In this document: positions 47,557 to 64,000 of the stretch, piece after piece
How positions within the stretch are numbered: position 1 is the stretch's first letter
Layout of the letters: each line of letters opens with the position of its first letter
Assembly: GCA_963677595.1 (NCBI GenBank)
Contig: OY782041.1
Coordinates: forward strand, 480,001 to 544,000
From: Spirochaetia bacterium
GTDB taxonomy: Bacteria > Spirochaetota > Spirochaetia > CAKZLE01
DNA: 64,000 nucleotides
Direction of reading: 5' to 3'
The notes under the pieces: generated by a model
Told to the model about the DNA's origin: nothing
Seen by the model: the letters and a program-made list of their open reading frames with translations, nothing else
Database searches by the model: none
Translations under genes and position numbers: made by a program

Positions 47557-48702
47557 ATGAGATACAAAGAACCTTTCACACTATACCCAAGAAAAATTTC
47601 TAGTGGCAAAACTGTTTGGTATTACCGCACATATGATGAGTATGGGGTTAGAACAACTGGGAAAAGTACGGGTGAAACCAATAAAACACGAGCAAGGCTC
47701 TATTGTCTGGATCTATTAAAGAAGGATCAACTCATTTCAAAGAAGATGTCATTCTTTTCTGAATATGCTGAAGGTTGGTTTGAATGGGATACCTGTTCTT
47801 ATGTTAAAACTCGTAGAGTGCGGGGAACAGAGAAACACCCCGGAATTAAAAAGAGTTATGCTGCAGATCTGAAAAATCGATTAAAAAGAGATATCCTCCC
47901 CTCTTTCCAACAATATAAACTCGATAAAATCACTCCAAGAATTATTGAGAATTGGGTGATTAAGAAACGTGATGATGGTCTTGCACCAAAGAATATTAAC
48001 AACTCACTCTCTGTTCTTCGAATAATGATGGAAGAAGCTCATAAGAATAAGATCATTCCGTCCAATCCGGCTGAACTCGTTCAACCTCTTCTTGTTGAAA
48101 GAAAAGTCAGGAGAGTCATCACCCTAGACGAAATCAGAGAATTGTTTGCTAAAGAGAATATGGAAAAACTATGGAAGAATAACATATATTACTACACTGC
48201 AAATTTACTGGCGGCCTCGACGGGAATGCGCCAGGGAGAAATACGGGGGTTATTGAAGAATCATTATTTTGGGGATTATGCTTTAGTAGAATTCTCTTAT
48301 GGTCAATTCGGCTTCACAACAACTAAAACAAATGAAAGAAGGAATGTTCCAATCCCTAAAAGAACACAGATATATATCGATATGCTGTGCACACAACCAT
48401 GGGATTATATTTTTACCATGAAAGGAACAGTTCCTATAGGAAGTAGCAAGCTAACAGAATCATTGTACTCTGCTCTTGAGTTGATGGGTATCACTGAGGC
48501 CGAGCGGAAAGAACGATACATTACTTTTCATGGGTGGCGACATTTCTTTAATACGTATTGTAGATCAAATAACATTGCAGACTCAAAGTTGCAATCTGTT
48601 ACAGGACATAAAACACAAGAGATGGTCGAGAATTATACCAATTTTGAACTTTCAGACGTTAAGGAGATTACAGAACTTCAGAACTCAATGTTTGTTGATT
48701 AG
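47557..48702 (+). CDS. Tyrosine recombinase/integrase
   Basis: Catalytic set TGMR, K, FHGWRH, GH, ENY; AT-rich; 82 bp after the tRNA. Confidence 0.93.
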   Translation: MRYKEPFTLYPRKISSGKTVWYYRTYDEYGVRTTGKSTGETNKTRARLYCLDLLKKDQLISKKMSFFSEYAEGWFEWDTCSYVKTRRVRGTEKHPGIKKSYAADLKNRLKRDILPSFQQYKLDKITPRIIENWVIKKRDDGLAPKNINNSLSVLRIMMEEAHKNKIIPSNPAELVQPLLVERKVRRVITLDEIRELFAKENMEKLWKNNIYYYTANLLAASTGMRQGEIRGLLKNHYFGDYALVEFSYGQFGFTTTKTNERRNVPIPKRTQIYIDMLCTQPWDYIFTMKGTVPIGSSKLTESLYSALELMGITEAERKERYITFHGWRHFFNTYCRSNNIADSKLQSVTGHKTQEMVENYTNFELSDVKEITELQNSMFVD

Positions 48703-49002
48703 GTTGATTACAAGATAATGGTTCTTCGTTACTCATTTGAAACCGATCATGCTAATCGGGTAGAAAGTGCACTACTCTTGGCACTCATGGTCTACACGAA
48801 ATACTGACCAGAGTATGACCATCGTACCTCAGAGGATATTCTCAGAAAGTTGCAGCCGGTTTTAGAGGTGATTGAAAAGAGATCATATAACTTTCAATCA
48901 ATGACTTATGAATATTATTTTGTTTTATAATGTTATGTAACATATTGTTATCAGCTCAGTTTTATATATAAGTAACTATCACAAAAAGTGAAAGGAGTCC
49001 CA

Positions 49003-49227
49003 ATGTCATTACTCTTTGCCTTGAGCAGTTTGGCAATTACCACCATTGGCCTCTTCATTGTTTTGCTCGGAGCAAGGCCTGACAGACTATTGGATGAAGG
49101 GGGCTCCCCTAACGGCCCAAAACAAAAACTTTCTCGGAATAGAAAGATTCTGATAGTTTTGGGTATCTTGATCATTGTGATTCATGCTGGACTTGCAACT
49201 CTTCATATTGTCGTTCATGCTCAATGA
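49003..49227 (+). CDS. Small two-TM protein (moron-like)
   Basis: SD AAGGAG, two hydrophobic helices, AT-rich, opposite strand to the late operon. Confidence 0.55.
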   Translation: MSLLFALSSLAITTIGLFIVLLGARPDRLLDEGGSPNGPKQKLSRNRKILIVLGILIIVIHAGLATLHIVVHAQ

Positions 49228-49682
49228 TTCGCCGTCACACCCTGCTTCTTCTCATAGGTCCTCATCCCCGCAAGCCCCAGCATCCCGGTCATAATCGGGA
49301 TCATCAAAGACAGATCGATTACCGGGAACTCAAACGTCTTTCCTGCAGCTGAAAGGACGGCAATCGCCCAGGGCCGGAGGATATAGTTATTCGCCAATGA
49401 TAGCCCGCACACCCACCCGATAAAGGGCCGCCAACCAGCCACGAACACAGATTGGTGCTGCGCTTCAGCAAGATTGATCTCGAGCTGCGTATGCTTCTGC
49501 AGATTCTCAGCTTCCAGGGCAATCTTCTCAAGCTCAGCCTTCTTCTCCGGGCTCATCTCTCCCGTGATTGCGGACCTGATCCCGGTCGCCAGGTTTGAGA
49601 TCCCATTGCTTACCGACTCCACCACGGTACTGGCAGCTTCAGCCGTCTCCTTCGCCCCGAAGATCTTTCCCAGCCAACTCAT
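49221..49682 (-). CDS. Holin (GTA 3TM-type family)
   Basis: EAQHQSVFVAGWRPFIGWVCG and MLGLAGMRTYEK motifs. Confidence 0.85.
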   Translation of the reverse strand: MSWLGKIFGAKETAEAASTVVESVSNGISNLATGIRSAITGEMSPEKKAELEKIALEAENLQKHTQLEINLAEAQHQSVFVAGWRPFIGWVCGLSLANNYILRPWAIAVLSAAGKTFEFPVIDLSLMIPIMTGMLGLAGMRTYEKKQGVTANH

Positions 49683-49915
49683 GAGGGATCCTTCTGCTTG
49701 TCTGCCAGCATATCAGTCCGCTTTGCTATGTTCCCCGATACAGCCTTGATCCCATACAGGGAGATGATCAGCAAGGCCAGAGGACCCAGGACCGCATTGA
49801 TCACCGCAATCGGAGTCTCACTGATCACGGCCAGGATGCAGATCGTGAAGAAGATCAGACACCCCACCATCCCCATGGTCTTCTTTGCTACTATTCGATT
49901 CATGATGTTTTTCAT
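49679..49915 (-). CDS. Small two-TM phage protein (holin-like)
   Basis: Two hydrophobic segments, SD GAGGA, ATGA overlap with the holin. Confidence 0.6.
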   Translation of the reverse strand: MKNIMNRIVAKKTMGMVGCLIFFTICILAVISETPIAVINAVLGPLALLIISLYGIKAVSGNIAKRTDMLADKQKDPS

Positions 49916-49926
49916 ACCATCCTCCC

Positions 49927-50193
49927 CTATTGTATCGCAGTCTCGTTGAGGTAACTCTTGATCTCATCCTCAACACTCGAGATGTTCCCGTTGCACTTGC
50001 CAGTCCTCACCGCATCGATTAAGCCCAGCATCCCCTTGAAGAGTAATCGGTTCTCCTGGACCCGGTCCTCTCCCCGCTTCCGCATGGTCTTCAGGTCTGC
50101 AGAGATTCTCACCATCATCGTAATCAATGCCCCGATTATTGCAGTGGTCCCCGTTGCTGCCAATGTCGTGAATAATCGAACCCAATCAATCAT
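49927..50193 (-). CDS. Small single-TM phage protein (holin/antiholin-like)
   Basis: N-terminal TM and a charged tail with CNGN; lysis-module position. Confidence 0.6.
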   Translation of the reverse strand: MIDWVRLFTTLAATGTTAIIGALITMMVRISADLKTMRKRGEDRVQENRLLFKGMLGLIDAVRTGKCNGNISSVEDEIKSYLNETAIQ

Positions 50194-50204
50194 GCTTAAT
50201 CCTC

Positions 50205-50564
50205 CTACACGTCCTCAGCATCTGAAAAATATGAGATATTTTCTTTTATATATTCATAGAGAGCAGTGATTATTGACTCTCGAGAAATTGCACCATCTAT
50301 TCTTAAAGCTGTAAGACTTGCAACCCGTGTGGCTGTATATAGCCAACAAGACCTACCCATATCTGGAAAGGATTCATCATCAAAGGAACAGTGATATAGT
50401 GTTTCCTCCTGTTGAGATGCTTCTATCGAAGCATAAGCACTAAGCCGATACTGAACACCATTTGTAGTAAAGTCTATGTTCACTTCAGACACTTTCCAGT
50501 ACGCATCAAGTACTTCGTAATATATTTTACAGTCCTCTTTACGAAGAGTCTTTTGCAATCCCAT
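50205..50564 (-). CDS. Putative tail-fibre assembly/chaperone protein
   Basis: Directly after the fibre, SD GGAGG, C-terminal LYEYIK...FSDAEDV typical of such proteins. Confidence 0.55.
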   Translation of the reverse strand: MGLQKTLRKEDCKIYYEVLDAYWKVSEVNIDFTTNGVQYRLSAYASIEASQQEETLYHCSFDDESFPDMGRSCWLYTATRVASLTALRIDGAISRESIITALYEYIKENISYFSDAEDV

Positions 50565-50573
50565 TGCAACCTC

Positions 50574-52325
50574 CTAATCTAATCTCAGCGCAAACCAATC
50601 AAAGGTAGTGGTGAACCCAGCGGTATTGTGTATATAAATTGTTGAACCCGATTGATAGCCGTGAGTCCCCCACATATCCGTGTTGTTATTGACGTTGTAC
50701 GCCTGGTGAACTCTCCAAGTCCCTGATACTCCGGTAGCGACTGCAACTCTACTGTTTGCTGATATGGTTACCGATCCATATTTAACCCCTGGACCTCGTA
50801 TAGAGTTTAGATACGTCCACAATCCTGCTATGTTCCCATTATTTAAGGGTAAAAGTTCGTTTGTATCAAACCGGATATTCTGCCCATTATCAGGGCCAAT
50901 CTGGAAAGCATGGTCTACACTGGTTTCAGAAGCATCCTGAGTATTGGTTAAGCGTTGTTTAGTAAGTTCAAGAACTCCATTTGACGCTTTCAAATACTCT
51001 GTACCAATGTTATTTTTTATAGAAAGTCCATACATAGACCCTTGAGTGAATGACCAAGTGTCGGTAGTAGAATGGCCTAGCTCATTCCCAAACGAGATTT
51101 TTACATTATTACCTAGGTCATAGGAGGTCCCAGCCGTGATTGCGGTAGGAGAACTCCATGTCCCACCTACCAATCTCCATTGAAAATATTCTACTGGTTT
51201 GGAGGTTTTCCTCATCGGTCTTGCTCGTCTGTCTAGTCCAATACTAGCCCATGTATAACTTCCATCTGACATATCTACTTGATACCAAGTTCTATCGTCA
51301 TCGTTATAATACTGATAAGCCCAATATAAGTTTTCCCTTAAGCTTAATGCCGTCTTTTGTGGGTACATCGCAAGCACTTGTTGAAGATTACCTAAAAACC
51401 AATCCGAGAAACCACCTTGTGAATAGGCGTTACAAGCATCACGCGCCTCCCATGCATTATAGTAATAATTATCTGGATAACTCCCGTTATCCCAATATGG
51501 TGAAGCCGCTTCTAAGTACCTGTAACCATCATCCCAATTGCCTTTATCATAAAAAACGGTTCCACCAGCTTCCCCGATGCCTCCGACAGAATATGGCGCA
51601 GACACTTGCCCTGTTGAAATCTTTACTTCATACGATGCCTCAATTGTTCCATCTTGGGTAATTTGTAAATCATTTAGTCCAGAGCCAGTGTAATGTATAG
51701 AGGTAATACCTGCATCTTCCTTGACGGCGACTCTTGCACTATCAGAGGCCCCATTACCAGACCTGAAGGTGCCAATGAATTCTCCATCTTTTGCTTTGAA
51801 GATTCCATTACCTCCAAGAAAGAATCCCTTACCATCAGCGGGAGGATTCCCATTTTCATCATATCCAGAATACACCACCCCATTGCCTGTTATTCGGATC
51901 TTCGTTGCTATGAGATATAGAAAATATGGAATCCAATAGAATACACTTGGATCAACAATTTCCGCATCATATGTAGGGGAAGTCTGATTATAGGCATGCC
52001 CAATGTATTGCCTGGTTCCTGGGATATCGCTTAAGTTGCTTCCATCTGCATCATCGGCATAGGCGACCCACATATAATGAGAAATGCCATCAATACCATC
52101 TGTTCCATCGGTACCAGTTGGGCCCTGTGGTCCAGTGGCCCCTTGAGGGCCTTGGGCTCCCGTGGCGCCGGTTTCTCCTTGTGGCCCTGTTGCACCGGTT
52201 TCCCCTTGGACACCTTGAGCTCCTTGAGGACCCGTAGCGCCTGTTTCTCCTTGGATACCTTGTGGCCCCTGCTCACCATCTGAGACATCTATGATTGTGA
52301 TCTGGTTCTTGGTAATCAGGCTCAT
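50574..52325 (-). CDS. Tail fibre/receptor-binding protein with collagen repeat and DUF1566/C-type-lectin-like domain
   Basis: 22 Gly-X-Y triplets; [10 protein letters not shown] module; GGTVFYDKG...RYLEAA...GGFSDWFL...RARPMR domain. Confidence 0.8.
52080..52277 (-). repeat. Collagen-like (Gly-X-Y)22 coding repeat
   Basis: [18 protein letters not shown]...[12 protein letters not shown]. Confidence 0.95.
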
Positions 52326-52335
52326 ACTACTCCTC

Positions 52336-53382
52336 TTAACTTACCGAGCAGGTAATGGTGGATTTCACATCCACGTCAGTTGTCCCAACTGAGATGCTTT
52401 TCCCGGTTTTGGAAGCCGAAGCATCCGCAAAGGTCCGGGCATTCCCGTCCTTGTTCGTGATCGTCCAGGTATAGGTGTACCCAGCCCCCCCGGCGTCGAT
52501 CTCTGCCCCATTCTGGTACAACTTTGCCGTCAGGGTGGTAGTCCCTACCCCATTCTTGAAGACCGTCCCGGCTGAGGATTCAATGACAACCTGGATCGGG
52601 TCGGTCATGTCGGTGAAGGCAATCACGTCATAGAAAGAATCCCCGTTGGTAGGACTTGCCGCATCGTTGTCAGTGATCTTCACCTTGAACTGCTGCAGCC
52701 CGTCAACCATTGCCGGAGTGATGGCCAGGGTATTGCTCGTCTGCCCTGCCATGAGATCCCAATCAGCGCCGGCCCCCTCATCCGCATTCCCGGGAGCATA
52801 CTTGAACCACTGGTATGAAAGCAGCGTGGTGTCCAGGGTTGCCCCTCGGTAGAGCTCGGCCTTTGCTGAAAGGGAAGTAGGTTCACTGTTCTTGAAGACA
52901 TTCCCGTTCGGCGCATGAACTGCAGCCACGGCAATATTATTCCCGTCGATCACCTTCGAGAGGTTGATACTGACCTTGTAGGTAAGATCCAACCCGGTAG
53001 CTGCATCATGGTAGATGATCGTACAGAGGTACTCGATCGCACTCAGAGAACCAGTCAGCTTATTAGCTGAGACGGTGAGAATATGACTCTTTGCCCCCGA
53101 TACGGCTTCCCCGGACGTGAGCGCCGAGAATGAACTTTGATCAGAGGGTTTGCGCTGCCAGGCAACTGACTGCACCGCTGAATCCGTGATCTTATCGGTC
53201 CCGCTTCCCAGGATGAAGAGACTGGGAGTGAGCACCAAAGAGGTACTTCCCCAGTCTGGGGTAAACGTCCCGGTATCCGCTGAATACCGCTGAGTTTTCG
53301 GTAAGTTCGATGTGATGAACCCGGTGAGGGTCAACGCATCGTTATAATCCATAATCGTAATCTGTCCAACTGAAGCAGCCAT
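52336..53382 (-). CDS. Tail structural protein made of three Ig-like repeats
   Basis: Repeated G.VFKN...L.A.LY.G...Y.W...TL.I pattern; beta-rich. Confidence 0.7.
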
Positions 53383-53394
53383 AGTATTTTCCTC

Positions 53395-55377
53395 CTATAT
53401 GAGCTCGCAAAAGAATGTCGCTCGTTTCTCGACATCACTGTCCGTTATCTGAATACTCTTCCCCCCGGTGGAGTAATGAGCCGAATTCCATACCGCATCA
53501 CTTTGCGTATCCCCTGATGTCCTCGACCACCGAAACCGTGAAGGGAGATACTGGTCCGTGATATCCTGCCCGCTCTGGAAGATGTGAGCTTCCAGGGTGG
53601 TATCCGTCAGTGCCGGCCGAAAGATATCCCCATTCGTTGAGAGGATCTGCAGCTGTACCGCCGGCTCCCCCTGAGGCCCTTCATACAGTGACCATGTGTA
53701 TTCAGCAGGATCCTCACTTGGTATTGAAGATTCTTTATTGTAGGCAATGCCTAAATAGGGCTTACCGGCAGGATTTTCACTCATCCCCGATCCATTCGCA
53801 TCATCAGCATACCTGATCCAGTTATAGAAACTTCTGGCAGAATCTATACCGGCAGGGGTCTCCTTCATCACGACAAAAGGGGTTCCTGCAGGGATGAACT
53901 CAGTTGTTTCCGTACATACAAGATGGGTGATCATACCGGCCAGGGTTTTTCCCTGTAAGCTATGGTCATAGGTGTCAATCACACAGGGAACAGGATCCTT
54001 ACCGGGAAGTTGCACCACTATCCGTGCTTTCCTTTGCAATTGCGGTAAAAACGAGGTGGCAAACGAGAACTGCCGCACTCGGTCTTTGCCTTCAGTCACC
54101 TTGAGAGAGAGCACCTGGTTGATCTGATCGGGAGAGGCAGCATACTTCCCTTCAATCTCTTCGTCTACATACAGTACTTCATCAGTTACTACCGGATCAG
54201 AGAATTCTACTTCCTGCTCTTTCGTCTGACGGTACGGAACCCCGCGAATCGTGAGTTTCCGTATTCGACAGACAGACGCCCCCGTATTCTGTAGAATAAT
54301 CTCGGAACAGGTTGGCAGTTGCCGGGTATACGCATTTGACCCATTGCAGGAAACCAGGGTTAGGGCACCTCCCTCATATACGATCTCTGCAGTACTGCTG
54401 CCATTTGAGAGGGAAGGAACCTGCACTGATGATGCATAAGGATACGCTTCACCTGTGGAGGGATCCTTATACTTCAGCTGCGCTTTATCTGCCGCTGCAG
54501 GACCTGGCCAGTATGCTCCTGGCTGCAACTCGATAAGGCATTGATCCAGTTCCTGATTGTAATTATCCGTGTTTTTATAGATGATCCGTTCAGACAATTC
54601 CTCAAACACGGCAATCGTACTTTTTGCCCGATTACAGGTAACTGCCCGATACGAGATCTCAACCGGCCCAATGATTCGGGATGCATTCCCCGAGATCGCC
54701 ACTGTAGGGTTACCTTGGAAGAGCCATTCAGATACCGGTTCCTGAAAGTTCTCTTCCAGCGGGGACCTAAATCGGAGTCTCCCAAGATGATCAAAATAGC
54801 AATCAGCATGGTAAGCTTCTGCAAGTAGCTGTAGTTCCTTCCAAATAGTTTTCGAGCCAATCTGCACCACCGGAAGCGTGTAGGGAATCTTCACGGTATC
54901 AAGTGAGGTAATCCCCATCTTTGCAGCAAGGATATGGATGATGGAACTTGCAGGATTACTCGGGTTGCTGATCATGCAATTCACCATGAGCACATCAGAG
55001 GGCTTGCGCTTTGTCCCCTTTCTACTTGTGGGGTCTACCAATTCAAGGGAGACCTGATCATTGGTACGTAATCCTACCGTACGTTTACACCCATCATCCG
55101 ATACATACCCAGTCCAGATACGATAGAAAGACAACCCATCAATGGAGCATTCAATTGCTGCAGAATATCCGGCAAACATACCCTCTTCAAATGCACCTCG
55201 ATTCTTCATTGAAATATGCCATTTCTGGTATTCACCAGCAGCAGTGCAGGAAAAATTCACCGGGTATAGCTCGAAGTTCTGATCATCGAGATCAAGGATG
55301 ACCTTCAGATAGCGCGCTATGCTGGGTTCTTTCAGGGCATCCCGAATAGCCTCTGGCAGAGGTATCATGTATCCCAT
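53395..55377 (-). CDS. Tail tip/baseplate hub-like protein with C-terminal Ig-like domain
   Basis: Follows the tape measure; ELQLLAEAY..CYFDHLGRLRF hub motif; WIRYADDANG module. Confidence 0.7.
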   Translation of the reverse strand: MGYMIPLPEAIRDALKEPSIARYLKVILDLDDQNFELYPVNFSCTAAGEYQKWHISMKNRGAFEEGMFAGYSAAIECSIDGLSFYRIWTGYVSDDGCKRTVGLRTNDQVSLELVDPTSRKGTKRKPSDVLMVNCMISNPSNPASSIIHILAAKMGITSLDTVKIPYTLPVVQIGSKTIWKELQLLAEAYHADCYFDHLGRLRFRSPLEENFQEPVSEWLFQGNPTVAISGNASRIIGPVEISYRAVTCNRAKSTIAVFEELSERIIYKNTDNYNQELDQCLIELQPGAYWPGPAAADKAQLKYKDPSTGEAYPYASSVQVPSLSNGSSTAEIVYEGGALTLVSCNGSNAYTRQLPTCSEIILQNTGASVCRIRKLTIRGVPYRQTKEQEVEFSDPVVTDEVLYVDEEIEGKYAASPDQINQVLSLKVTEGKDRVRQFSFATSFLPQLQRKARIVVQLPGKDPVPCVIDTYDHSLQGKTLAGMITHLVCTETTEFIPAGTPFVVMKETPAGIDSARSFYNWIRYADDANGSGMSENPAGKPYLGIAYNKESSIPSEDPAEYTWSLYEGPQGEPAVQLQILSTNGDIFRPALTDTTLEAHIFQSGQDITDQYLPSRFRWSRTSGDTQSDAVWNSAHYSTGGKSIQITDSDVEKRATFFCELI

Positions 55378-55379
55378 AC

Positions 55380-57812
55380 CTATGCTACCCCTGAGATGAT
55401 CTCAACATTGCCGCCAATCCCGGCATAGGCTTTGACTGCTTTTACGACATACTCTCCAACTGCTTCCATGCCTCCATCCCCGATGACATTACCTTGGAAG
55501 TACTGGTGCACTTCAATGGTCACCTGCTGCACCGAAGTGCTTGATCCGGTACTCCCTGTAGTATTCCCAATCAATGAGGATCCCGATGCCGTTAAGGTCT
55601 CATAATTAATCGTATCGAGTCTCCCTGCATCCAGAGCCCGCTCTGCCATCCGGTACTTGATGTTCACCCCCAACCAACCCAAAACCCCATTCACTCCATC
55701 AATGAGCCCATTAACAATTTTTGCAACTCCGTTATGAATCCAGTTGAAGAGGGTGATCAGCATATTCCCGACCGGAACAATCACGGAGTTATACATCCAC
55801 AGCCAGCCCTTTGCGACAATCTCAATAATACCGCCCAGGGTCTTCAATACTGGGGCTATCACCTTTCCAATCGTCTGCCCAAGTATCCGAAGTATCCCTA
55901 CCATCGGGGCTAATACCTCATCAATAACCGGTCCCAAGATATCCATGACACCGCCGAGGATCGTTGAGATCGGGTCCATGATTGCCGTTACCGATCCCAA
56001 CCCTTTAACCAGGTCAACAATCTTTCCTCCAAATGATCCAAGGAGCTCACCAAGCCCTGATGCCGCGTTCTTCAAGATATCAAGTATCCCTGTCCCTCCG
56101 GTTCCCGGCAGCGTTCCCTTTGACTGCTGATACTTGGCCGTCTGGGTAGCTTCCTGCTGGGCCTCAGTATTGTCTTCGGTGGCTTCCGTTTGGGCAAAGC
56201 TTGCATCCATAAGCCCCTTGATATCGCCCCCAACAGCAGAGAGGGCCCCGGCAAGGTGCCCGAAAGCAGCCGTTCTCACATCCTTGGTATTCGCAGGGCC
56301 TAAGGCTGTTTGTACGTAGGTTACCAGGCTATCCTTTGCCTGGACGAAGGCGTCCTTGATACCATCTGTGACATCTTTGAATGTCGCATCATTCGATGTA
56401 GGAGCCGTGACCGGATTGATCCCCCCAATATAAGCTCGTGGAATATCATTCCCTGTATCTTCAAGCCGTGCGATCCCGCCCGAGTACGCTTCTCTTTTAC
56501 TGGCACGTAATGGGTGCTTGAGCGTCTGGGTAACATTCCAAGCTTTCTCTGAAACAATATTTATCTGATCGATAAAGAAATTGATCACCGATCGGAACAT
56601 ATCCTTGAACCCGGTCCCAATGGTCTGTCCGATGTTCCAGAAGGCTTCTCCAATCACATTGATTTTCTCGATCATGAAATTCAATCCAGAGACCACTCCT
56701 CCTTGAATAGCACCCCAGGCTTTCTGAAATCCAAACTTGATTGGCTCCCAGATCACCGCACCGAGGAGATTGATCAGGGAAGCCATATACTGCAGATATG
56801 CTTCCCCGGTAGCTTTGAACCATTCCCACATAGCTGTCCCGAGTGATTTCCAGTATTCGACGGTAAAGATCTGATCGATGAATGCCTTGATAGCCTCTAC
56901 GATCGTCGCCACATAGTCCGGGAGATTCCCGATCACCGTCACGATTCCGGTCAACACAGCTCCCATGTTCTGTGCAAATGCCTGGAACGTCTCTGAATCA
57001 CGCAGTTTCCCCAACATCGTGATCACCGACGAAAGGACCTGCTTGATTGCCGGCAGCAAGGTTTCCATGAGCTCCGCGAGCGTTATGTTGAGATTATCCC
57101 TGAAGGTTGAGATCACCCCATTCAAGGTCTGCGATTGCTTCTCAAGCATCCCGGCAAATTGGCCCTGCCCGGTAGTCAAGGATGTTAGGGCCTGATCGAC
57201 ATCAGCAAAGCCAACCTTTCCAGCAGAAACCATCTTGAAGAGTTCCTCGGTAGATACACCATACTGATCAGCAAGGGTCTGCAGGATCGGTACGCCCGCT
57301 TCAGTGATCATGTTGAGTTCTTCGAGTGAGGCTTTTCCCTTCGCATTGATCTTTCCGTAGGCCCGTACCAATGAATCAAGTTTCTGCTCATTCCCCATAG
57401 AGGCATTCCCGAGCATTTCCATCTTCTCTTTGACGGAATCTGCCCCCACCCCAAACGCCATGAGGTTCTGTGCCCCCTTGGTAATGGTCTTGAATTCAAG
57501 CGGGGTCGACGCTGAGAAGTCTCGCAGCTCCCCAATGACCTGTTGGGCTTTTTGGGCATTCCCGATCAAGACTTCAAATGAGACATCAATCTGCTCAAAG
57601 TCTGCAGCCTGGGAGATCCCTGTCTTTAATCCCTTGAAGAGAAGGACCAGTCCGCCAATCTTGGTAGCAACAGCCGCCAATGAGGAGACCATGGACTTGG
57701 ACATCGTCCCGGTTACCCCCGAGAGTTTCCCTAAGGATTTCCCGGCTGAAGCGGCAGCCTTTGAGACGTATTCTGTGCCATTTATCACCACGCTTACTTG
57801 GTTGCTTGCCAC
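55380..57812 (-). CDS. Tape measure protein
   Basis: F.VLIGNA..A, STPLEF, KASLEELNMITEAGVPI, QSQTLNG..STFRDN; Ala/Gly-rich helical. Confidence 0.92.
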   Translation of the reverse strand: MASNQVSVVINGTEYVSKAAASAGKSLGKLSGVTGTMSKSMVSSLAAVATKIGGLVLLFKGLKTGISQAADFEQIDVSFEVLIGNAQKAQQVIGELRDFSASTPLEFKTITKGAQNLMAFGVGADSVKEKMEMLGNASMGNEQKLDSLVRAYGKINAKGKASLEELNMITEAGVPILQTLADQYGVSTEELFKMVSAGKVGFADVDQALTSLTTGQGQFAGMLEKQSQTLNGVISTFRDNLNITLAELMETLLPAIKQVLSSVITMLGKLRDSETFQAFAQNMGAVLTGIVTVIGNLPDYVATIVEAIKAFIDQIFTVEYWKSLGTAMWEWFKATGEAYLQYMASLINLLGAVIWEPIKFGFQKAWGAIQGGVVSGLNFMIEKINVIGEAFWNIGQTIGTGFKDMFRSVINFFIDQINIVSEKAWNVTQTLKHPLRASKREAYSGGIARLEDTGNDIPRAYIGGINPVTAPTSNDATFKDVTDGIKDAFVQAKDSLVTYVQTALGPANTKDVRTAAFGHLAGALSAVGGDIKGLMDASFAQTEATEDNTEAQQEATQTAKYQQSKGTLPGTGGTGILDILKNAASGLGELLGSFGGKIVDLVKGLGSVTAIMDPISTILGGVMDILGPVIDEVLAPMVGILRILGQTIGKVIAPVLKTLGGIIEIVAKGWLWMYNSVIVPVGNMLITLFNWIHNGVAKIVNGLIDGVNGVLGWLGVNIKYRMAERALDAGRLDTINYETLTASGSSLIGNTTGSTGSSTSVQQVTIEVHQYFQGNVIGDGGMEAVGEYVVKAVKAYAGIGGNVEIISGVA

Positions 57813-58102
57813 TGTTGCTGTATCTCCTCATTGCGAAGCGCGTTCCATCGATTACGAATAATGTCATAGACCGCCAGATCATAGGCCGGCTGGTCTGCCA
57901 TGCCCCCATCATACTTGAATCGGGCATAGGTCCCTTCCCCATCCAACAAGCGGATGCAGTCAGCAACCCACGGCCCCCAATACTCAATGAGCTCAACCGG
58001 ATCACTGCCGTCCGGCAGCAGATCCCCGTACTCGAACTCTACTCCTTTGTAGATCCATTCGGTGACATCTCGGATTTCGGTGAGCTCGTTTCGGCTAAAG
58101 GG
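57794..58102 (-). CDS. gpT-like extension of the tail assembly chaperone (-1 frame; not in the ORF track)
   Basis: 102 open codons from slippery CCCTTTA (58102-58096) to TAA: FSRNELTEIRDVTEWIYKG...YDGGMADQPAYDLAVYDIIRNRWN... Confidence 0.8.
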   Translation of the reverse strand, partial: PFSRNELTEIRDVTEWIYKGVEFEYGDLLPDGSDPVELIEYWGPWVADCIRLLDGEGTYARFKYDGGMADQPAYDLAVYDIIRNRWNALRNEEIQQQWQATK

Positions 58103-58563
58103 CGATTATGTTCCGCAATACATCCTAAGATTTCTCCCGCAATCTCGGGGTATTCCAGGAGATCCCGCACAAAGGAATCATCCACCACCGATGAGTGCCG
58201 GGTATCGAGTTCTCCCTCACAGAAATTGTGAGAATCAATCCCGAAGGTCAACCTGGCTTTGCATAGGTCATAGGTTGCTGCGGTATCCCCATCCATAAGC
58301 GCTTCAAGTTCCTCTGCGGTGAGCAGCTCCATGATCTCCTGCTCACTCATATGCGCAAGTTCCGATCCGCGCTCCTCGGCTTTCTTGGTTACCGAAACCA
58401 GGGCTTTCCGATTGACTCCTTTCTGCAGCCGCCGCATCTCTTCATTGATCGCATCTTCCCCAGCCTTCGAGAATTTCCTCGGCTTGATCCAGTATCCTGG
58501 AAAGGTCGTTAAGATCTTCTTTCCCCCAACAACGGTTCGCCTGGCATCATCTTTCCATCCCAT
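58039..58563 (-). CDS. Tail assembly chaperone (gpG-like)
   Basis: Between tail tube and tape measure; slippery heptamer near the 3' end. Confidence 0.8.
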   Translation of the reverse strand: MGWKDDARRTVVGGKKILTTFPGYWIKPRKFSKAGEDAINEEMRRLQKGVNRKALVSVTKKAEERGSELAHMSEQEIMELLTAEELEALMDGDTAATYDLCKARLTFGIDSHNFCEGELDTRHSSVVDDSFVRDLLEYPEIAGEILGCIAEHNRPLAETSSPKSEMSPNGSTKE

Positions 58564-59855
58564 TACGCGTCATACCTCCCTGCATCAGTAGTGAGTAACA
58601 TGATCTGAACCATCGGGTCATAGCTCATCTGATCAATCACCTGATAGGCAAACTGCAGATCAATCACGTTCCCGGATTCTGTGGGTTCCCCCTCGGTATA
58701 TTGCACTGCTGGCAGATCAATGATCGCCAGTTCCGGGATATCAGCTGCATACTGGCCCCCCTGGAATACAGCAAGCAGAGAAGCAATCCCATCATCGAGG
58801 ACCTTACTGCGTTCGGCCTTGGCCGATGCATCGGTGCGGATCTTGAAAGACCCGGTAGCATCAAACTCTCCTCGGGCATGTTCTGATTTATACAAGGATC
58901 CCTGTCCGTAGCCGACATCACTGTCATGGTTGTTCTTGATATCAACCGAGAACGATTTGATATAGCTATACTTCGTTCCCGATACGAAGGAGGAGCCCCG
59001 GAAGAACCGCATCGGCTCCTGAGGAGGAAGCGGAAGCGCTGATGCTTCCTGACCTCCGGTGTGGGTAAGCCCAATCAGAGATAATGAAGCTGAAGCTCGT
59101 CCTTTTAACTCTGCAGATATCGATGCACCATCGGCTACCATCCCAGCAGAAAGGATATTGTCTGTGATCCCATCTGCCTGGATAGAATAGGTAGGCCGTT
59201 CCACTGTCCCGAGCACACTCTTGATCGTGTGTAGGTACACCCCGGAGGTGTCACTTGAAAAGAAGATGACTACCTGGCGATCCTTCCCCTGGGCTGCTGT
59301 TATGGCAACGGGGTTAATCGTCGAGAGGTTATCAGGGCCGAACAGGATTTCTGCCTCATATGCTGCATATCCATTCAGGACGGTTTGTAATTCAAGAAGG
59401 GTATTCACACTTTCATCTGTCAGTGTCTCAACCCCAGCGGTTCCAAATGCTGGATCTGCAGTCTCTGAACCCAGGCTCCCAATGAAGGAAGAGATCTGCT
59501 GCCCCGCATCGGTGACCATGATCTTGCAACTAGGTTGTACTCCGGTATAGCGAAGCAATATCGCCCCGCCAACCTGCTTGGGTGTGGTATCTCCCCCCAG
59601 AAGCGAAGTGAGTCCCATGCCGATCCCGGAACAGGGGGCAAATTTCAACGGAAACTCCCCAGTAACCTCGATGGAGTCAGTGTATACCTTCCCCTTAGAG
59701 TTCCTCCCCGTGACCACCTCATCGCTCTGCTTTGAGGGGGTTGCTTTCAATGTCGGGATCCCGGTAATGGGAAGCCTGGCTGTACGTGCTACAGCCGTTC
59801 CGGGAGTTGCTTCTTTCCCGCCGATACACGCTACTACATGTGCCTTCTTATCCAT
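58563..59855 (-). CDS. Major tail (tube) protein, unusually long
   Basis: GKEATPGTA N-terminus, YLHTI, SFSVDIKNN, ATGSFKI; position after the tail terminator. Confidence 0.75.
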   Translation of the reverse strand: MDKKAHVVACIGGKEATPGTAVARTARLPITGIPTLKATPSKQSDEVVTGRNSKGKVYTDSIEVTGEFPLKFAPCSGIGMGLTSLLGGDTTPKQVGGAILLRYTGVQPSCKIMVTDAGQQISSFIGSLGSETADPAFGTAGVETLTDESVNTLLELQTVLNGYAAYEAEILFGPDNLSTINPVAITAAQGKDRQVVIFFSSDTSGVYLHTIKSVLGTVERPTYSIQADGITDNILSAGMVADGASISAELKGRASASLSLIGLTHTGGQEASALPLPPQEPMRFFRGSSFVSGTKYSYIKSFSVDIKNNHDSDVGYGQGSLYKSEHARGEFDATGSFKIRTDASAKAERSKVLDDGIASLLAVFQGGQYAADIPELAIIDLPAVQYTEGEPTESGNVIDLQFAYQVIDQMSYDPMVQIMLLTTDAGRYDA

Positions 59856-59870
59856 GATTCATATACTCCT

Positions 59871-60302
59871 TTAGGTATGTGTGTATTCAGTGATTGCAAT
59901 ACTGACAACTGCATACTGTCGATTCCCCGTGCCCCCAGGATAGAACTCTGCCTGCGTAACTTCTGCATGCTCACAGAGCCCATCCAACTGATCATTGCTG
60001 GTCACTAAACTGGTAATGGCATCGGCATACTTCATCGCCTGCTGCAGCACCAGATCAGAATCATATCCATCAACCGATATCAGGCAGTCTATTGAAAGGT
60101 CAGACTGCAAAGATCCTTGATAGACATCCCTGTCAAAGTCAATGCGGGAAGGGCTCACCAGTACACAGGGTTGAGGTCGTCCTTTCTTCTCATAATCGGT
60201 TCCTATTCCCACGTACTTGATTCCACGCTCATATTCGGCAATATGCTGCTCCACAAAGGCAGCTACCCCGCTGGTGATCCGGTATGATGCATCAAACCTC
60301 AT
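59871..60302 (-). CDS. Tail terminator-like protein
   Basis: 143 aa, P..LV and QLDGLC pattern, synteny. Confidence 0.6.
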   Translation of the reverse strand: MRFDASYRITSGVAAFVEQHIAEYERGIKYVGIGTDYEKKGRPQPCVLVSPSRIDFDRDVYQGSLQSDLSIDCLISVDGYDSDLVLQQAMKYADAITSLVTSNDQLDGLCEHAEVTQAEFYPGGTGNRQYAVVSIAITEYTHT

Positions 60303-60754
60303 ATCTTTATACCCAATGTCTTCATCTCAGCATCGATCGCTTTCACCGCAATACGGTTTAGCTCCCCTGAAGCCAGAAACCCTCGGATTCCAGGATAGAA
60401 GAACGGCCTCGGCTCAATGCGGACGGAGGAACGATAGATCACTTCCCCATCAATCTCAAACCGCAGCGCTTTTCCCTTCGCCTGGATGTTTGCCCCATGA
60501 TGCTCATAGATCGATGCTAACGCCGGAGCCTTCAAGCGGTAATACGCCTTTCTGGTCTTTCGATACTGGATCCCTTTTCGCATCTTCCCGCTCCGCTCGG
60601 TGAATCGGCTGTTCATCTGCCTGATTACAGCCTGCTTTGCCCCAAAACTGATTCCTGAAAGTACGTGGTCGAGTGCTTCAGGAGACCGCTTGCTGAGCTT
60701 CTGCAGCTTCTCACTCACCTCATCACTGAAGGTAATGGCAGGTCGCCTATTCAT
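60299..60754 (-). CDS. Neck/tail completion protein (HK97 gp10-like)
   Basis: Basic; RSGKMR, IYEHHG, KALRF, PRPFF motifs. Confidence 0.7.
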   Translation of the reverse strand: MNRRPAITFSDEVSEKLQKLSKRSPEALDHVLSGISFGAKQAVIRQMNSRFTERSGKMRKGIQYRKTRKAYYRLKAPALASIYEHHGANIQAKGKALRFEIDGEVIYRSSVRIEPRPFFYPGIRGFLASGELNRIAVKAIDAEMKTLGIKI

Positions 60755-61323
60755 ACACGCTCCACGCGATACCCGCGAAAGACATCCTTGATCGATGGCG
60801 GAAGATATCGCTCATAGGCAGTATTGATCCCTTCAGATGAACTGATTGTCGCCACCCCTATGGCATGGTCATTGAACCGGTCCATCAGCCAGGAGACCCC
60901 TTCAATGGTTGCCTGTTTGACATCAGCGGGAATCTCGGTATACCCGATGGTGGCAACCAGCTTGATTGTCCGCCTCCCCTTTGGGGCGAGCCGGTCCAGC
61001 AGATAAATCAGTCCTGCATCCTGATCAACGTCGTAGGACTCTGCGGGTATCAAGGTATCAAGTCCAAATTCCCGAGTCCTATCAAGGTAGAGAGCCGAAA
61101 CCACAGTGAGCGGGAATGCCGGAACGATAATACATCGGCCAGCATGTCCTTCGAGATACATTTCTTCGTTCACACGCTCACAGATGATCCTTCCTGACAG
61201 ACGGTGTGCTGTCGCACTCATGGCATTAATACACCAGATCGTACGCTCCCGGAGTTCAATCGGAATCTGCAGGATAGCCTCAGCCTCTTCGACGCTGATC
61301 AGGGCAGTACTGATGAGTTCCAT
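60751..61323 (-). CDS. Head-tail connector (gp6/gp15-like, long form)
   Basis: ISVEEA..IL, GYTEIPADVKQA, LP..IKDVF..YR motifs. Confidence 0.75.
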   Translation of the reverse strand: MELISTALISVEEAEAILQIPIELRERTIWCINAMSATAHRLSGRIICERVNEEMYLEGHAGRCIIVPAFPLTVVSALYLDRTREFGLDTLIPAESYDVDQDAGLIYLLDRLAPKGRRTIKLVATIGYTEIPADVKQATIEGVSWLMDRFNDHAIGVATISSSEGINTAYERYLPPSIKDVFRGYRVERV

Positions 61324-61326
61324 AAT

Positions 61327-61578
61327 CTACCGCTTCTCCACCGCTTCTTTCGGGGTCGCGGTTTCGAGTTCGGTAGCTGTTGAGAGCACCTCTGCATACC
61401 CGCAACGCGCTAACTCGAGGGCGACCGATCGTTCCAGGATCGGCATGTCCCCCTTCACAAACGATCCATGGGGACCGGAATGTGGAACAAGAACCTTCAC
61501 GTGTGCGAGGGTTTGCGAAACTTCCAGTGGTGCGTTTTCGCTTTGTGTAGGCTCTGCTATTGGCTTCTTTGGCATCAT
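61327..61578 (-). CDS. Small protein after the major capsid gene
   Basis: SD AAGGAGG; GD...A.EL...GYAE...ETAT pattern common at this position. Confidence 0.6.
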   Translation of the reverse strand: MMPKKPIAEPTQSENAPLEVSQTLAHVKVLVPHSGPHGSFVKGDMPILERSVALELARCGYAEVLSTATELETATPKEAVEKR

Positions 61579-61604
61579 TGCCTCCTTGTGTATTGATACA
61601 TCTA

Positions 61605-61624
61605 CAGGGGAGGACCCTCCCCTG
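61605..61624 (-). terminator. Hairpin after the capsid gene (partial terminator or mRNA stabiliser)
   Basis: CAGGGGAG-N4-CTCCCCTG; no U-tract. Confidence 0.5.
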
Positions 61625-61637
61625 CACGAATCAGCGC

Positions 61638-62822
61638 TTATGCTGCTGCCATGGTAAGCTTCTTGATTGCATCAGAGAGCATCACCGACGCATCCAGCCG
61701 CTCGAATACGCGGTACCCCACCTGCCCGCTTTCTGCATAAAGCTCATTGAGCCGCTGTACGGACCGGGCTCCTCGCTGGGCGATGGTGTAGTACTTCAGG
61801 TTCCCGAAGATCAGCGGCGTTGCCCCGGCTGCAATGGTAGGCATCCCCAGGGTTTCCTCAAAGGTGTTCCCCAAGAGGCTGTCAGGCTGCCCAGCGGTGA
61901 GTGCCGGCTGCCAGATATACCGCCCTTGAGCATCCTTCATTTTCCGGATCACTTTCGCGGTATCGGTAGCACCTACCCAGATAGCATTATTCCGGTACTG
62001 CTTCTTCAACGAATACTGGAAGTCGATGAGCTCATCGGTGGTAAATGCCAGCGTTGATGCTGCCGTCTTCCCCAAAGAAGACCCTGCGATCAGCCCACCA
62101 ATCTCATTCGCTCCGGTTCCCTGGCAGAACTTGATGTCCTGGGCTTCTCCGGCGAGATCGGCATAGTTGGTTGCCAGTTCGCCGAACAGGTCATACCCGG
62201 AATCAGCCAGGAGTTCCTCTGAGAGTTTGACCAGGTAGGTGAGCTTGTATGCGGTCAACGCCTTTTTGTCATAGGTCGGCGTACTGTCCTGGAAATCTTC
62301 CGCTTCACCCTTCCAGTACACCGTTCCGCGGTTGTTGCTGATCGGGATTTCCCGGTCATGCTTGAGGTTCAGAACCTTTGCATATTTCCTGATCACTGCG
62401 ATATCAGGTAAAGCTCGCATAATAGCCTTATCCAAGTCTGTTGGTGCTAAGTATCCGCCGTTTGCATCGGTTCCAATCGACATGGCCCGCAGTTCACCGG
62501 GATCCCCAGTCTGCAGGTAGCGGGTATATGCGGACCGATACTCCTCAGTCTCGAGAATAGATCCCCGCTGCTCCCCTTCACCTTCAGGATTCGGTCGAGT
62601 ACCTGAGAAGTCAGTGGTTCTGAGCTCTTCCTCAGCTGCTTCCTGACGTTTACGCAGCTGAATATCGGCATTGACCGAATCAAAATCAGCCATGATCCCT
62701 TCATATTTAGATCGTTCCTCGGCAGTGAGATCTCGTTTCTCACCATCTGCGGTATCCAGAATGCCTCGTGCTGATTTCAACAGCTTTGCTCGTTTGTCTA
62801 AGAGTTCCTGTAATTTATGCAT
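61638..62822 (-). CDS. HK97-fold major capsid protein with delta domain
   Basis: NGGYLAP, W.GE, KLSEELLADS, KMKDAQGRYIWQP, FGNLKYY; start MHKLQE after SD AGGAG. Confidence 0.95.
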   Translation of the reverse strand: MHKLQELLDKRAKLLKSARGILDTADGEKRDLTAEERSKYEGIMADFDSVNADIQLRKRQEAAEEELRTTDFSGTRPNPEGEGEQRGSILETEEYRSAYTRYLQTGDPGELRAMSIGTDANGGYLAPTDLDKAIMRALPDIAVIRKYAKVLNLKHDREIPISNNRGTVYWKGEAEDFQDSTPTYDKKALTAYKLTYLVKLSEELLADSGYDLFGELATNYADLAGEAQDIKFCQGTGANEIGGLIAGSSLGKTAASTLAFTTDELIDFQYSLKKQYRNNAIWVGATDTAKVIRKMKDAQGRYIWQPALTAGQPDSLLGNTFEETLGMPTIAAGATPLIFGNLKYYTIAQRGARSVQRLNELYAESGQVGYRVFERLDASVMLSDAIKKLTMAAA

Positions 62823-63477
62823 GGTTGTGCTCCTGTTCATAGAGATATAGTTGATCTCGCAAGATCGAAATCGGTGTTTCTCCTGGTTCCGCTCCCGTTG
62901 GAGCTGCCTCACCTGACGTTTCAGGCTTCGGCTGGTTCCGGCAGATCAACTCTTTCGACCTAGCATAGACTTCAGTTGTAGGGTATGCCGGCTGGCATAC
63001 CGGGGAGAAATCAGGGAGCTCGGAAAACTCCTTGATGGTCCTGATATCCAGGATGGAGCCGTCTTCGTTCTCTTCTATGCTCCACTCATCCTGACCGCGG
63101 GCAACTTTGAACCCGAAAGACATCTGGTTCACAATCCCGCTCATGATCGCCTCATACCCATCCCGGCCCCAGACGGTCCCCTGGACCTCGGCCCGTATGA
63201 ATACCCCATGCTCATCCTCGGTAGCTTCCAGCGTGCCGTTCTCGAACCCAGCCATAGGTTTCGAGGTATCATGATTCCAATACACCTTTGTGGTTCGTTT
63301 CCCCAGGGCTTGTGTAGCCGCTCCCGGTAGGATCACTTCTACCAGTCCCGGCCACAGAACGGTCCGCTGGTTGTAGACAATCGGATATCCTTCGATGATC
63401 ATCTTGTCTTTCTCGACAGTTACGCGGAGCTCTTCTCCGCCAAACTGCCTGAATCGTCGTTCAATTTCCGTCCTCAT
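62815..63477 (-). CDS. HK97-family prohead protease
   Basis: IEGYPIVYN, E.I.PGA, WNHD, QMSFGF, SPV..PAYPTT. Confidence 0.93.
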   Translation of the reverse strand: MRTEIERRFRQFGGEELRVTVEKDKMIIEGYPIVYNQRTVLWPGLVEVILPGAATQALGKRTTKVYWNHDTSKPMAGFENGTLEATEDEHGVFIRAEVQGTVWGRDGYEAIMSGIVNQMSFGFKVARGQDEWSIEENEDGSILDIRTIKEFSELPDFSPVCQPAYPTTEVYARSKELICRNQPKPETSGEAAPTGAEPGETPISILRDQLYLYEQEHNHA

Positions 63478-64000
63478 ATACCCTCCGCTACAATGTCACA
63501 GTCACATCCATCGTGGTACGGTGCATGTGATCGATTGGTATGGGGAATAAGCACACTCTGTGCCCCCTCGGGCTTGAATTCTTCCCCTTTATAGATGAAT
63601 GATTCTTCTATCCCGATCACCTTCCCATTCAACGCACTGCAGAACGGGCAATTATCCCCATGGGCTACCGATCGAATCTTGGTGATCCCGGCGATCCCGT
63701 ATGCTCCCTTGGCCAGATAATTCCTGAGCCTCGTCACTTCCCGCTGCTCTATTTTCTGCGCGTTCGTCTCCTCCCAGCTATCCATCCGCCTGTTGATATC
63801 CTCTATAAAATCTTCGGTAGCCTCCTCGATGAGCTTCACCAGTTGTCCCTTTGATGAGGAGGTGTACCGAAGCGCAAATGCACTGACATATTTTGTGAGT
63901 AACTCACTGTAGGTATCAGGAATTTCAGCGGCAAGACCAACTTCCGCGGCATACACCCCATAAAGCTCCTCACCCATCTTCCTAAAAACCGGGGTAAAGA
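63474..64000 (-). CDS. C-terminal part of a MuF/SPP1 gp7-like head protein or portal-MuF fusion (5' end outside the window)
   Basis: Frame open to the window edge; CPFC..LNG and PYHDGCDC motifs. Confidence 0.7.
   Translation of the reverse strand, partial: FTPVFRKMGEELYGVYAAEVGLAAEIPDTYSELLTKYVSAFALRYTSSSKGQLVKLIEEATEDFIEDINRRMDSWEETNAQKIEQREVTRLRNYLAKGAYGIAGITKIRSVAHGDNCPFCSALNGKVIGIEESFIYKGEEFKPEGAQSVLIPHTNRSHAPYHDGCDCDIVAEGI

Follow-up and report, generated by a model that had tools for sequence, protein, structure and literature searches.

In chaperone-usher pili (Fim, Pap), an immunoglobulin (Ig)-like fold lacking strand G is completed by the N-terminal extension of the next subunit. 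The tail module of a prophage found in a Spirochaetia bacterium encodes three consecutive proteins, of 660, 348 and 583 residues, that are probably connected by joints of this donor-strand type. They correspond to a putative hub, a spacer made of Ig-like domains and a fibre with a collagen repeat. The C-terminal domains of the first two, predicted to be open, are referred to below as sockets, and the N-terminal strands of the last two as plugs. The locus lies in a stretch of 64,000 nucleotides (nt) of contig OY782041.1 (the window), within which all positions are counted. In phage tails, a precedent is provided by Tuc2009. According to the accessible part of the report on its crystal structure (PDB 5E7T, PMC4742702), a C-terminal 25-residue hairpin of BppU completes the sheet of BppA, so that one tail protein supplies the β element that completes an Ig/titin-like domain in another, as proposed here. 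In Tuc2009, however, a side accessory accepts a C-terminal hairpin, while in the window a single N-terminal strand would act in series, with a two-ended spacer. Judged from the AlphaFold models, the putative donor is N-terminal and a single strand, not a C-terminal hairpin of the Tuc2009 type. A preliminary description of the locus suggested that nothing of the kind was described for phage tails; this is too broad, since the principle of inter-protein Ig completion is already known from Tuc2009 (PMC4742702, accessible part), although its geometry differs from the serial N-terminal form. Serial N-terminal strand donation between phage tail proteins was not found in a literature search of limited recall, which missed the Tuc2009 paper as well and largely left subscription journals uncovered.

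Two groups of Tal proteins resemble the locus in their domain order. The streptococcal and lactococcal P335 type I Tals (DT1/DT4 Orf18, BK5-T, C41431) are a fused form containing Ig, collagen and '3-beta' elements (PMC9437275, PMC9692632), arranged in the same order of hub, Ig-like domain, collagen linkers, '3-beta' and binding domains. Their Ig domain is homologous to the socket over its N-terminal part (E values of 1e-7 to 1e-9) and ends in a plug-like strand; in DT4 and BK5-T, this is the strand that opens gp695 of Sfi11 and orf57 of bIL286. The boundary of the DT1 Ig domain, 402–490 in the accessible part of PMC9437275 (Table 1), would take in this strand, as judged with the numbering of the related DT4 protein. 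These Tals differ in being single chains with no spacer, and the accessible parts of both papers describe no split or inter-chain completion. The second group comprises the split Tals of the S. thermophilus phages Sfi11, O1205 and TP-J34 (gp1000/gp373/gp57/gp695), for which sequencing errors or introns were suggested (Lavelle 2020; PMC7533335 and PMC3952083, accessible parts). Their breaks lie at the same socket and plug positions and gp373 is a homologue of the spacer, but they have an extra gene for a 57-residue protein that is absent from the window. The three genes of the window, and the elements at their junctions, are the following:

50574..52325, minus strand: 583-residue fibre, with plug, collagen repeat (residues 17–80), short β repeat and variable C-terminal region
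52278..52313, minus strand: plug 2, G-like strand at the N-terminus of the fibre (residues 5–16)
52330..52334, minus strand: Shine-Dalgarno sequence AGGAG of the fibre gene
52336..53382, minus strand: 348-residue spacer (P0001; phrog_3267), with plug and three Ig-like domains, the last predicted to lack strand G
52339..52599, minus strand: socket 2, which is spacer domain D3, predicted strands A to F only (AlphaFold and hhalign)
52600..52935, minus strand: spacer domain D2, a complete repeat whose own G strand ends in D-x-x-D (AlphaFold and hhalign)
52942..53337, minus strand: spacer domain D1, complete Ig-like fold (AlphaFold)
53338..53373, minus strand: plug 1, G-like strand at the N-terminus of the spacer (residues 4–15)
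53391..53396, minus strand: Shine-Dalgarno sequence AGGAGG of the spacer gene, overlapping the upstream TAG stop
53395..55377, minus strand: open reading frame (ORF) of the 660-residue tail-tip protein, a probable hub (Tal equivalent)
53398..53658, minus strand: socket 1, Ig-like domain, residues 574–660, ending after strand F (hhalign)

The gap between the 660-residue protein gene and the spacer gene (junction 1) is 12 nt, with the stop codon in frame with the spacer start, a feature overlooked in the preliminary description. The gap between the spacer and fibre genes (junction 2) is 10 nt and out of frame. Each gene had been credited with its own Shine-Dalgarno sequence; this holds for the spacer (AGGAGG) and the fibre (AGGAG), whereas the 660-residue protein gene has only a weaker purine-rich site. 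The sequences originally quoted were all found, on the minus strand, and the pattern described for them (a complete internal repeat, two sockets that stop one strand short, and a following gene that opens with such a strand) was borne out by alignment and AlphaFold. In profile-profile comparisons, the match of D2 to D3 (probability 96.8, E value 3e-10) stopped where strand F ends, at D2 position 90 of 114, and that of D2 to the last domain of the 660-residue protein (probability 93.6, E value 2e-7) stopped at the same position. The best local match of the spacer N-terminus on D2 was the last strand, at positions 104–114, with an E value (0.01) that is weak when taken alone. Socket 1 aligned end to end with D3 (hhalign probability 99.5), and the predicted truncation of the C-terminal domain of the 660-residue protein rests on this homology.

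The AlphaFold model of the spacer, built on 90 homologues (predicted local distance difference test, pLDDT, of 92.9), contained three tandem domains. The first of them, the N-terminal Ig domain D1, had gone unnoticed in the preliminary description, which had recognized the repeat correctly. A long last strand closes D1 (residues 131–146) and D2 (249–259). Rather than forming a complete C-terminal fold, D3 was predicted to end at strand 342–347 with the G strand absent, and with a pLDDT of 94–97. Residues 1–18 showed no secondary structure and were unpaired, leaving the plug free (pLDDT 56–76). Residues 19–144 matched a whole antibody V domain (Z score 8.1, root-mean-square deviation (rmsd) 3.3, 100 residues aligned). 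The structural matches of the spacer in Foldseek and VIA were tandem Ig proteins with at most 18% identity, headed in Foldseek by Hoc of RB49 (3shs), which likewise bears tandem Ig-like domains on the virion but shares 13% identity, has complete domains and is bound to the capsid. The spacer matched the tail protein family phrog_3267 over its full length (E value 1e-98; residues 2–348 on 4–367 of 369) and had 1083 homologues at E≤1e-10. Pfam gave no family for it, the sole match, Hyr1, being spurious, and PDB sequence searches with P0001, A1 and A4 returned nothing significant (with the spacer sequence or the profile built from it, there was no match at E≤1). The fibre matched Pfam Collagen (PF01391) above the cut-off at residues 17–74 (E value 2e-9), in keeping with its Gly-X-Y repeat, and also matched tail-fibre PHROGs; tblastn with its first 80 residues found collagen matches only. 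An invariant D-x-x-D ends both the plug and the last strand of D2, and an invariant G-x-x-F-K-N lies in the next domain (52339–53382). These motifs could possibly form a rigid or metal-bound interdomain joint; a calcium site at D-x-x-D is a guess.

Plug 1 is one of the most conserved parts of the spacer. The whole protein had an entropy of 1.36 bits and residues 6–15 one of 0.45 bits (rank 6 of 339 sequence windows), and Q7, I10, D12 and D15 were conserved in 99–100% of the 90 homologues. The N-terminal plug motif was present in 116 of 124 spacer homologues. In a non-circular test, a profile derived from internal G strands only was compared with 82 distinct N-termini that follow a socket and with 841 others; it placed the former above the latter (area under the curve, 0.87), with plug 2 the fourth-highest of the 82.

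The idea that socket and plug motifs would occur together in adjacent genes elsewhere was supported by a census across phages. The motif used (a regular expression) was derived from the same set and is thus circular, and the count omits any socket that lies 400 nt or less from a locus end. A plug-led gene followed 154 of 167 distinct sockets in the automatic count, and 11 of the 13 misses were recovered on re-inspection, giving 165 of 167 junctions and leaving L126 and L149. As for the background, 16 of 709 N-termini matched the motif, and by inspection all 16 belonged to spacer or tip genes of such chains. The socket domain was internal in 8 of 136 cases, each followed by a G-like strand, and none had a tail of 13–30 residues. 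Junctions were found in spirochaete and Clostridia prophages, in Lactococcus CHPC971 and bIL286, Streptococcus Sfi11 and Javan271, Lactobacillus LfeInf and Enterococcus VRE9_4 (a four-member chain), and in Bacillus sipho- and myophages; the close relatives of the prophage locus come from Spirochaetia genomes. In the Bacillus phages, the spacer and tip genes are 80–130 nt apart, and a hairpin followed by a T run was read by eye in three of four such gaps, which suggests separate control of the tip gene:

L166:8685-8774; L167:8992-9098; L170:9052-9182; L171:9043-9125: gaps between spacer and tip genes of Bacillus phages

Natural fusions and skipped spacers occur at the same positions. The phiNIT1-like phages have a spacer-tip fusion, with the plug four residues after strand F. 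When a natural fusion of this type was folded, the plug formed strand 93–101 (pLDDT ∼91), and residues 3–103 of the model matched residues 1–114 of a whole antibody VH (2dqd_H; Z score 7.5, rmsd 2.4, 83 residues aligned), which is consistent with a complete Ig domain in which the plug takes the place of strand G. Since chain adjacency helps this result, the model speaks for fit, not for binding in trans. An hhalign comparison of D2 with the fusion ended before the G strand in local mode; global mode alone paired both D-x-x-D ends. Alignment A6 was dropped, as the tip fragments landed on strand E and not on the plug. In phage B4, which lacks a spacer, a hub-type socket is fused directly to a plug-like strand; in fHoEfm07 the socket is followed by a plug-led fibre encoded by a separate gene, again with no spacer; and in Bcp1 hub, spacer and fibre are all separate. 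Protein P0127 joins the hub of the window (66% over residues 1–581) to a fibre like that of the window (72% over the last 72 residues; matches at fibre residues ∼48–203 and 511–582) without the socket-spacer-plug cassette, and hub and fibre would therefore act as one functional arm. Spacers range from 331 to 795 residues, both ends being kept and the length being changed by domains added inside the spacer. A search with D3 for longer proteins gave four matches, of which the three inspected were long spacers rather than fusions. Three loci carry, downstream of one spacer, two tandem tip genes with near-identical plugs and divergent bodies; the complete pair of L118 is 54% identical over the aligned N-terminal part:

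L058:5860-8436; L114:8411-11029; L118:8411-12913: double-tip loci

The gene layout, the presence of own ribosome-binding sites, the truncation at strand F, the conservation of both elements, and the natural fused and skipped forms support the plug-and-socket arrangement put forward in the preliminary description, as does the folded fusion; from these we infer binding between separate chains. On this evidence, it is quite likely that donor-strand-type joints build the hub-spacer-fibre chain. According to the predictions, the Ig-like domain at the C-terminus of hub and spacer is without its last (G) strand, and the N-terminal strand of the next protein would insert into the open groove of the one upstream, locking separately made proteins head to tail. 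The models predict an open socket of six strands and, in the fused chain, a plug at the G position. Tal hubs and collagen fibres are trimeric; a 3:3:3 chain is therefore proposed, in which a trimeric hub would carry three spacer rods that end in one collagen triple helix. Assembly would take place in the cytoplasm without chaperone or usher, and with a standard joint of this kind, recombination could add, remove or swap length modules and tips.

The comparison with chaperone-usher pili made in the preliminary description applies to the joint itself. Both have a subunit whose Ig fold lacks strand G (predicted for D3, by homology for socket 1). In the natural single-chain fusion model, the plug took the G position. 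A Pfam scan of the 16 prophage proteins at 47557–63977 (five of them without family; the prophage extends past the window) found no chaperone or usher family. No Sec signal peptide was read from the sequence ahead of the plug, which starts at residue 4–5 of spacer and fibre. The pili have all three, and the likeness is therefore confined to the joint. The polarity here would also differ, running from the hub socket to the distal plug on the virion; no sequence relation between the two joints was found, and the chain in the window is apparently a defined one. Nor did the receptor-binding role assigned to the plugged modules stand in full. In phage Deep-Blue, Gp187 is the spacer and Gp186 the plugged tip, while Gp185, the protein named as receptor-binding in the accessible part of PMC11406892, has no plug. 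The plugged tip thus need not be the main receptor binder.

Several observations weigh against this reading. Many of the census loci are related Clostridia prophages, so that the counts are not independent and overstate the independence of the junctions. At L149 the gene after the socket has no plug, and insertions part the socket from the plug at L126 (∼780 nt) and L123 (∼426 nt); the small protein encoded in the L126 insertion presumably resembles the RelB/DinJ antitoxin. Of the 137 short gaps, 78 are in frame, above the one third expected. In the internal-G-strand profile, 30 of the 82 post-socket N-termini exceeded the 95th percentile of the others. The plug of the folded fusion is covalently next to strand F, favouring a hairpin, and three of the 29 alignment rows span it. 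In Listeria LP-P111 a socket-type domain is internal (378–461 of 764 residues) with no evident G strand after it. In five dairy and Enterococcus phages, a gene for a protein of 50–57 residues (families phrog_7926 and phrog_32229) lies between spacer and tip, which may point to the need for a further factor. The product of this gene could be a candidate helper or cap for the socket; the label of phrog_7926, 'helicase subunit of the DNA excision repair complex', is probably wrong. The coordinates of these elements are:

L126:182-963; L123:6574-7001: insertions between hub socket and spacer
L163:6434-6607; L164:6419-6592; L155:9422-9595; L157:9410-9583; L165:6417-6590; L158:9101-9253: loci of the 50–57-residue protein gene

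In LP-P111 (L168:3870-7248), the next gene begins with a plug-like strand, an arrangement that might be a branch point.

With the same joint, the spacer might also plug into itself, so that hub and tip would be linked by a pilus-like shaft that varies in length. The spacer does carry both plug and socket, and its plugs share on average 5.9 of 11 residues with tip plugs (40 pairs), the two being almost identical in PJN02, PBC2 and EalM-132. In B4 and fHoEfm07, tip-type plugs occur directly with hub-type sockets, and ORF31 of phiEF24C, likened by annotation to the phiNIT1 fusion, is found in a long flexible fibre (PMC3201976, accessible part). Self-polymerization is nevertheless unlikely: the sockets of hub and spacer belong to separate subfamilies (in the window they share 26% identity), spacer plugs vary far less than tip plugs, as would suit a dedicated partner, and a phiNIT1-like fusion closes the spacer's socket, length growing instead by domains inside the spacer. 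We consider it very unlikely that the six-strand domain is a complete fold, with the N-terminal strand docking elsewhere on the tail and gene adjacency being a relic of gene fission. Although D3 has a high pLDDT without a G strand, and L149 its plugless gene, such values are no proof of stability; moreover, all internal socket domains except that of LP-P111 are followed by a G-like strand, and a relic would not rank among the most conserved 2% of sequence windows. Equally hard to credit, if not more so, is a closed ring or collar in which the spacer plug would fill the last domain of its own chain or of an adjacent spacer. Plug and socket do lie on one chain, but the plug is free in the monomer model, about three residues tie it to D1, two domains away from D3, and the plugs on fibres and sockets on hubs would be left unexplained. 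Least probable of all is a single chain made by stop readthrough, frameshift or splicing, or interrupted by sequencing errors as Lavelle 2020 suggested for Sfi11, O1205 and TP-J34: junction 1 and the excess of gaps that are multiples of three would fit it, and the joined ORFs resemble a one-piece Tal (PMC7533335, accessible part), but 59 of the 137 short gaps, junction 2 among them, are out of frame, which rules out readthrough as a general rule, both junctions of the window have strong Shine-Dalgarno sites, gaps of 1–21 nt leave no room for an intron, and breaks at the same places turn up in phages of four genera that were sequenced independently.

The donor-strand joint between separately made proteins might have a wider role, although this is a tentative and rather doubtful proposal. 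It could be a chaperone-free connector shared by the adhesion devices of sipho- and myophages that infect Bacillota and Spirochaetota. Its plugs might be so interchangeable that spacers could chain onto themselves and one phage could mount alternative tips on the same socket, so that virions of mixed fibre length and tip would arise from one genome. The joint would provide a structural rule for building long flexible adhesion fibres, which cryo-electron microscopy often leaves unresolved, from separate genes in many phages of Gram-positive bacteria and spirochaetes. Model dairy phages with split tail genes, for which the accessible part of PMC7533335 proposes sequencing errors or introns, would thereby offer a joint that can be tested. 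A plug of 12 residues and a socket of 90 would explain the transfer of tips and length modules between unrelated phages, the order of the tail tip could be read from sequence, and the pair could serve as a small natural coupling tag.

The assignment of the 660-residue protein as the hub, or Tal equivalent, is probable but should be taken as a lead. Its gene comes directly after that of the tape measure, in the Tal position (which usually follows Dit), and in Clostridia and dairy relatives the socket is found on genes annotated in that position. The protein is made up of an N-terminal part of ∼500 residues, a short β repeat, collagen-like triplets and the socket. Its PHROG matches are confined to residues ∼490–660, and homologues of residues 1–500 exist with other C-termini. 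It gave no Pfam match and no PDB sequence match when assessed for a gp27-like fold. The nearest named Atlas clusters were DUF5048, DUF5047 and Prophage_tail, at 0.91–0.92, with low counts of shared features. No separate Dit gene lies between the tape measure gene and that of the 660-residue protein (55377–55380), and the latter may combine the Dit and hub roles.

The remainder of the tail module, also on the minus strand, encodes capsid, protease, tail tube and tape measure proteins, in this order, ahead of the three ORFs; downstream (3′) of the fibre ORF lie three small genes, one of them for a holin, and then the integrase gene:

47557..49682: prophage end, with the integrase at 47557–48702 on the plus strand (Pfam Phage_integrase) and the holin at 49221–49682 on the minus strand (Pfam GTA_holin_3TM)
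55380..57812, minus strand: tape measure protein (Pfam TMP_3, E value 2e-27)
58563..59855, minus strand: tail tube protein (Pfam Phage_tube_2, E value 5e-17)

The collagen region at 52086–52277 contains near-duplicate DNA repeats, and similar short β repeats are present in both hub and fibre. Recombination between these collagen or β repeats could lead to gain or loss of the cassette, as the case of P0127 suggests. Finally, a second locus in the genome from which the window derives (L160, G000:C1:2405763-2409806) has a closely similar spacer and a different fibre. The body of its upstream protein is unrelated to the 660-residue protein of the window, and both socket and plug are kept.

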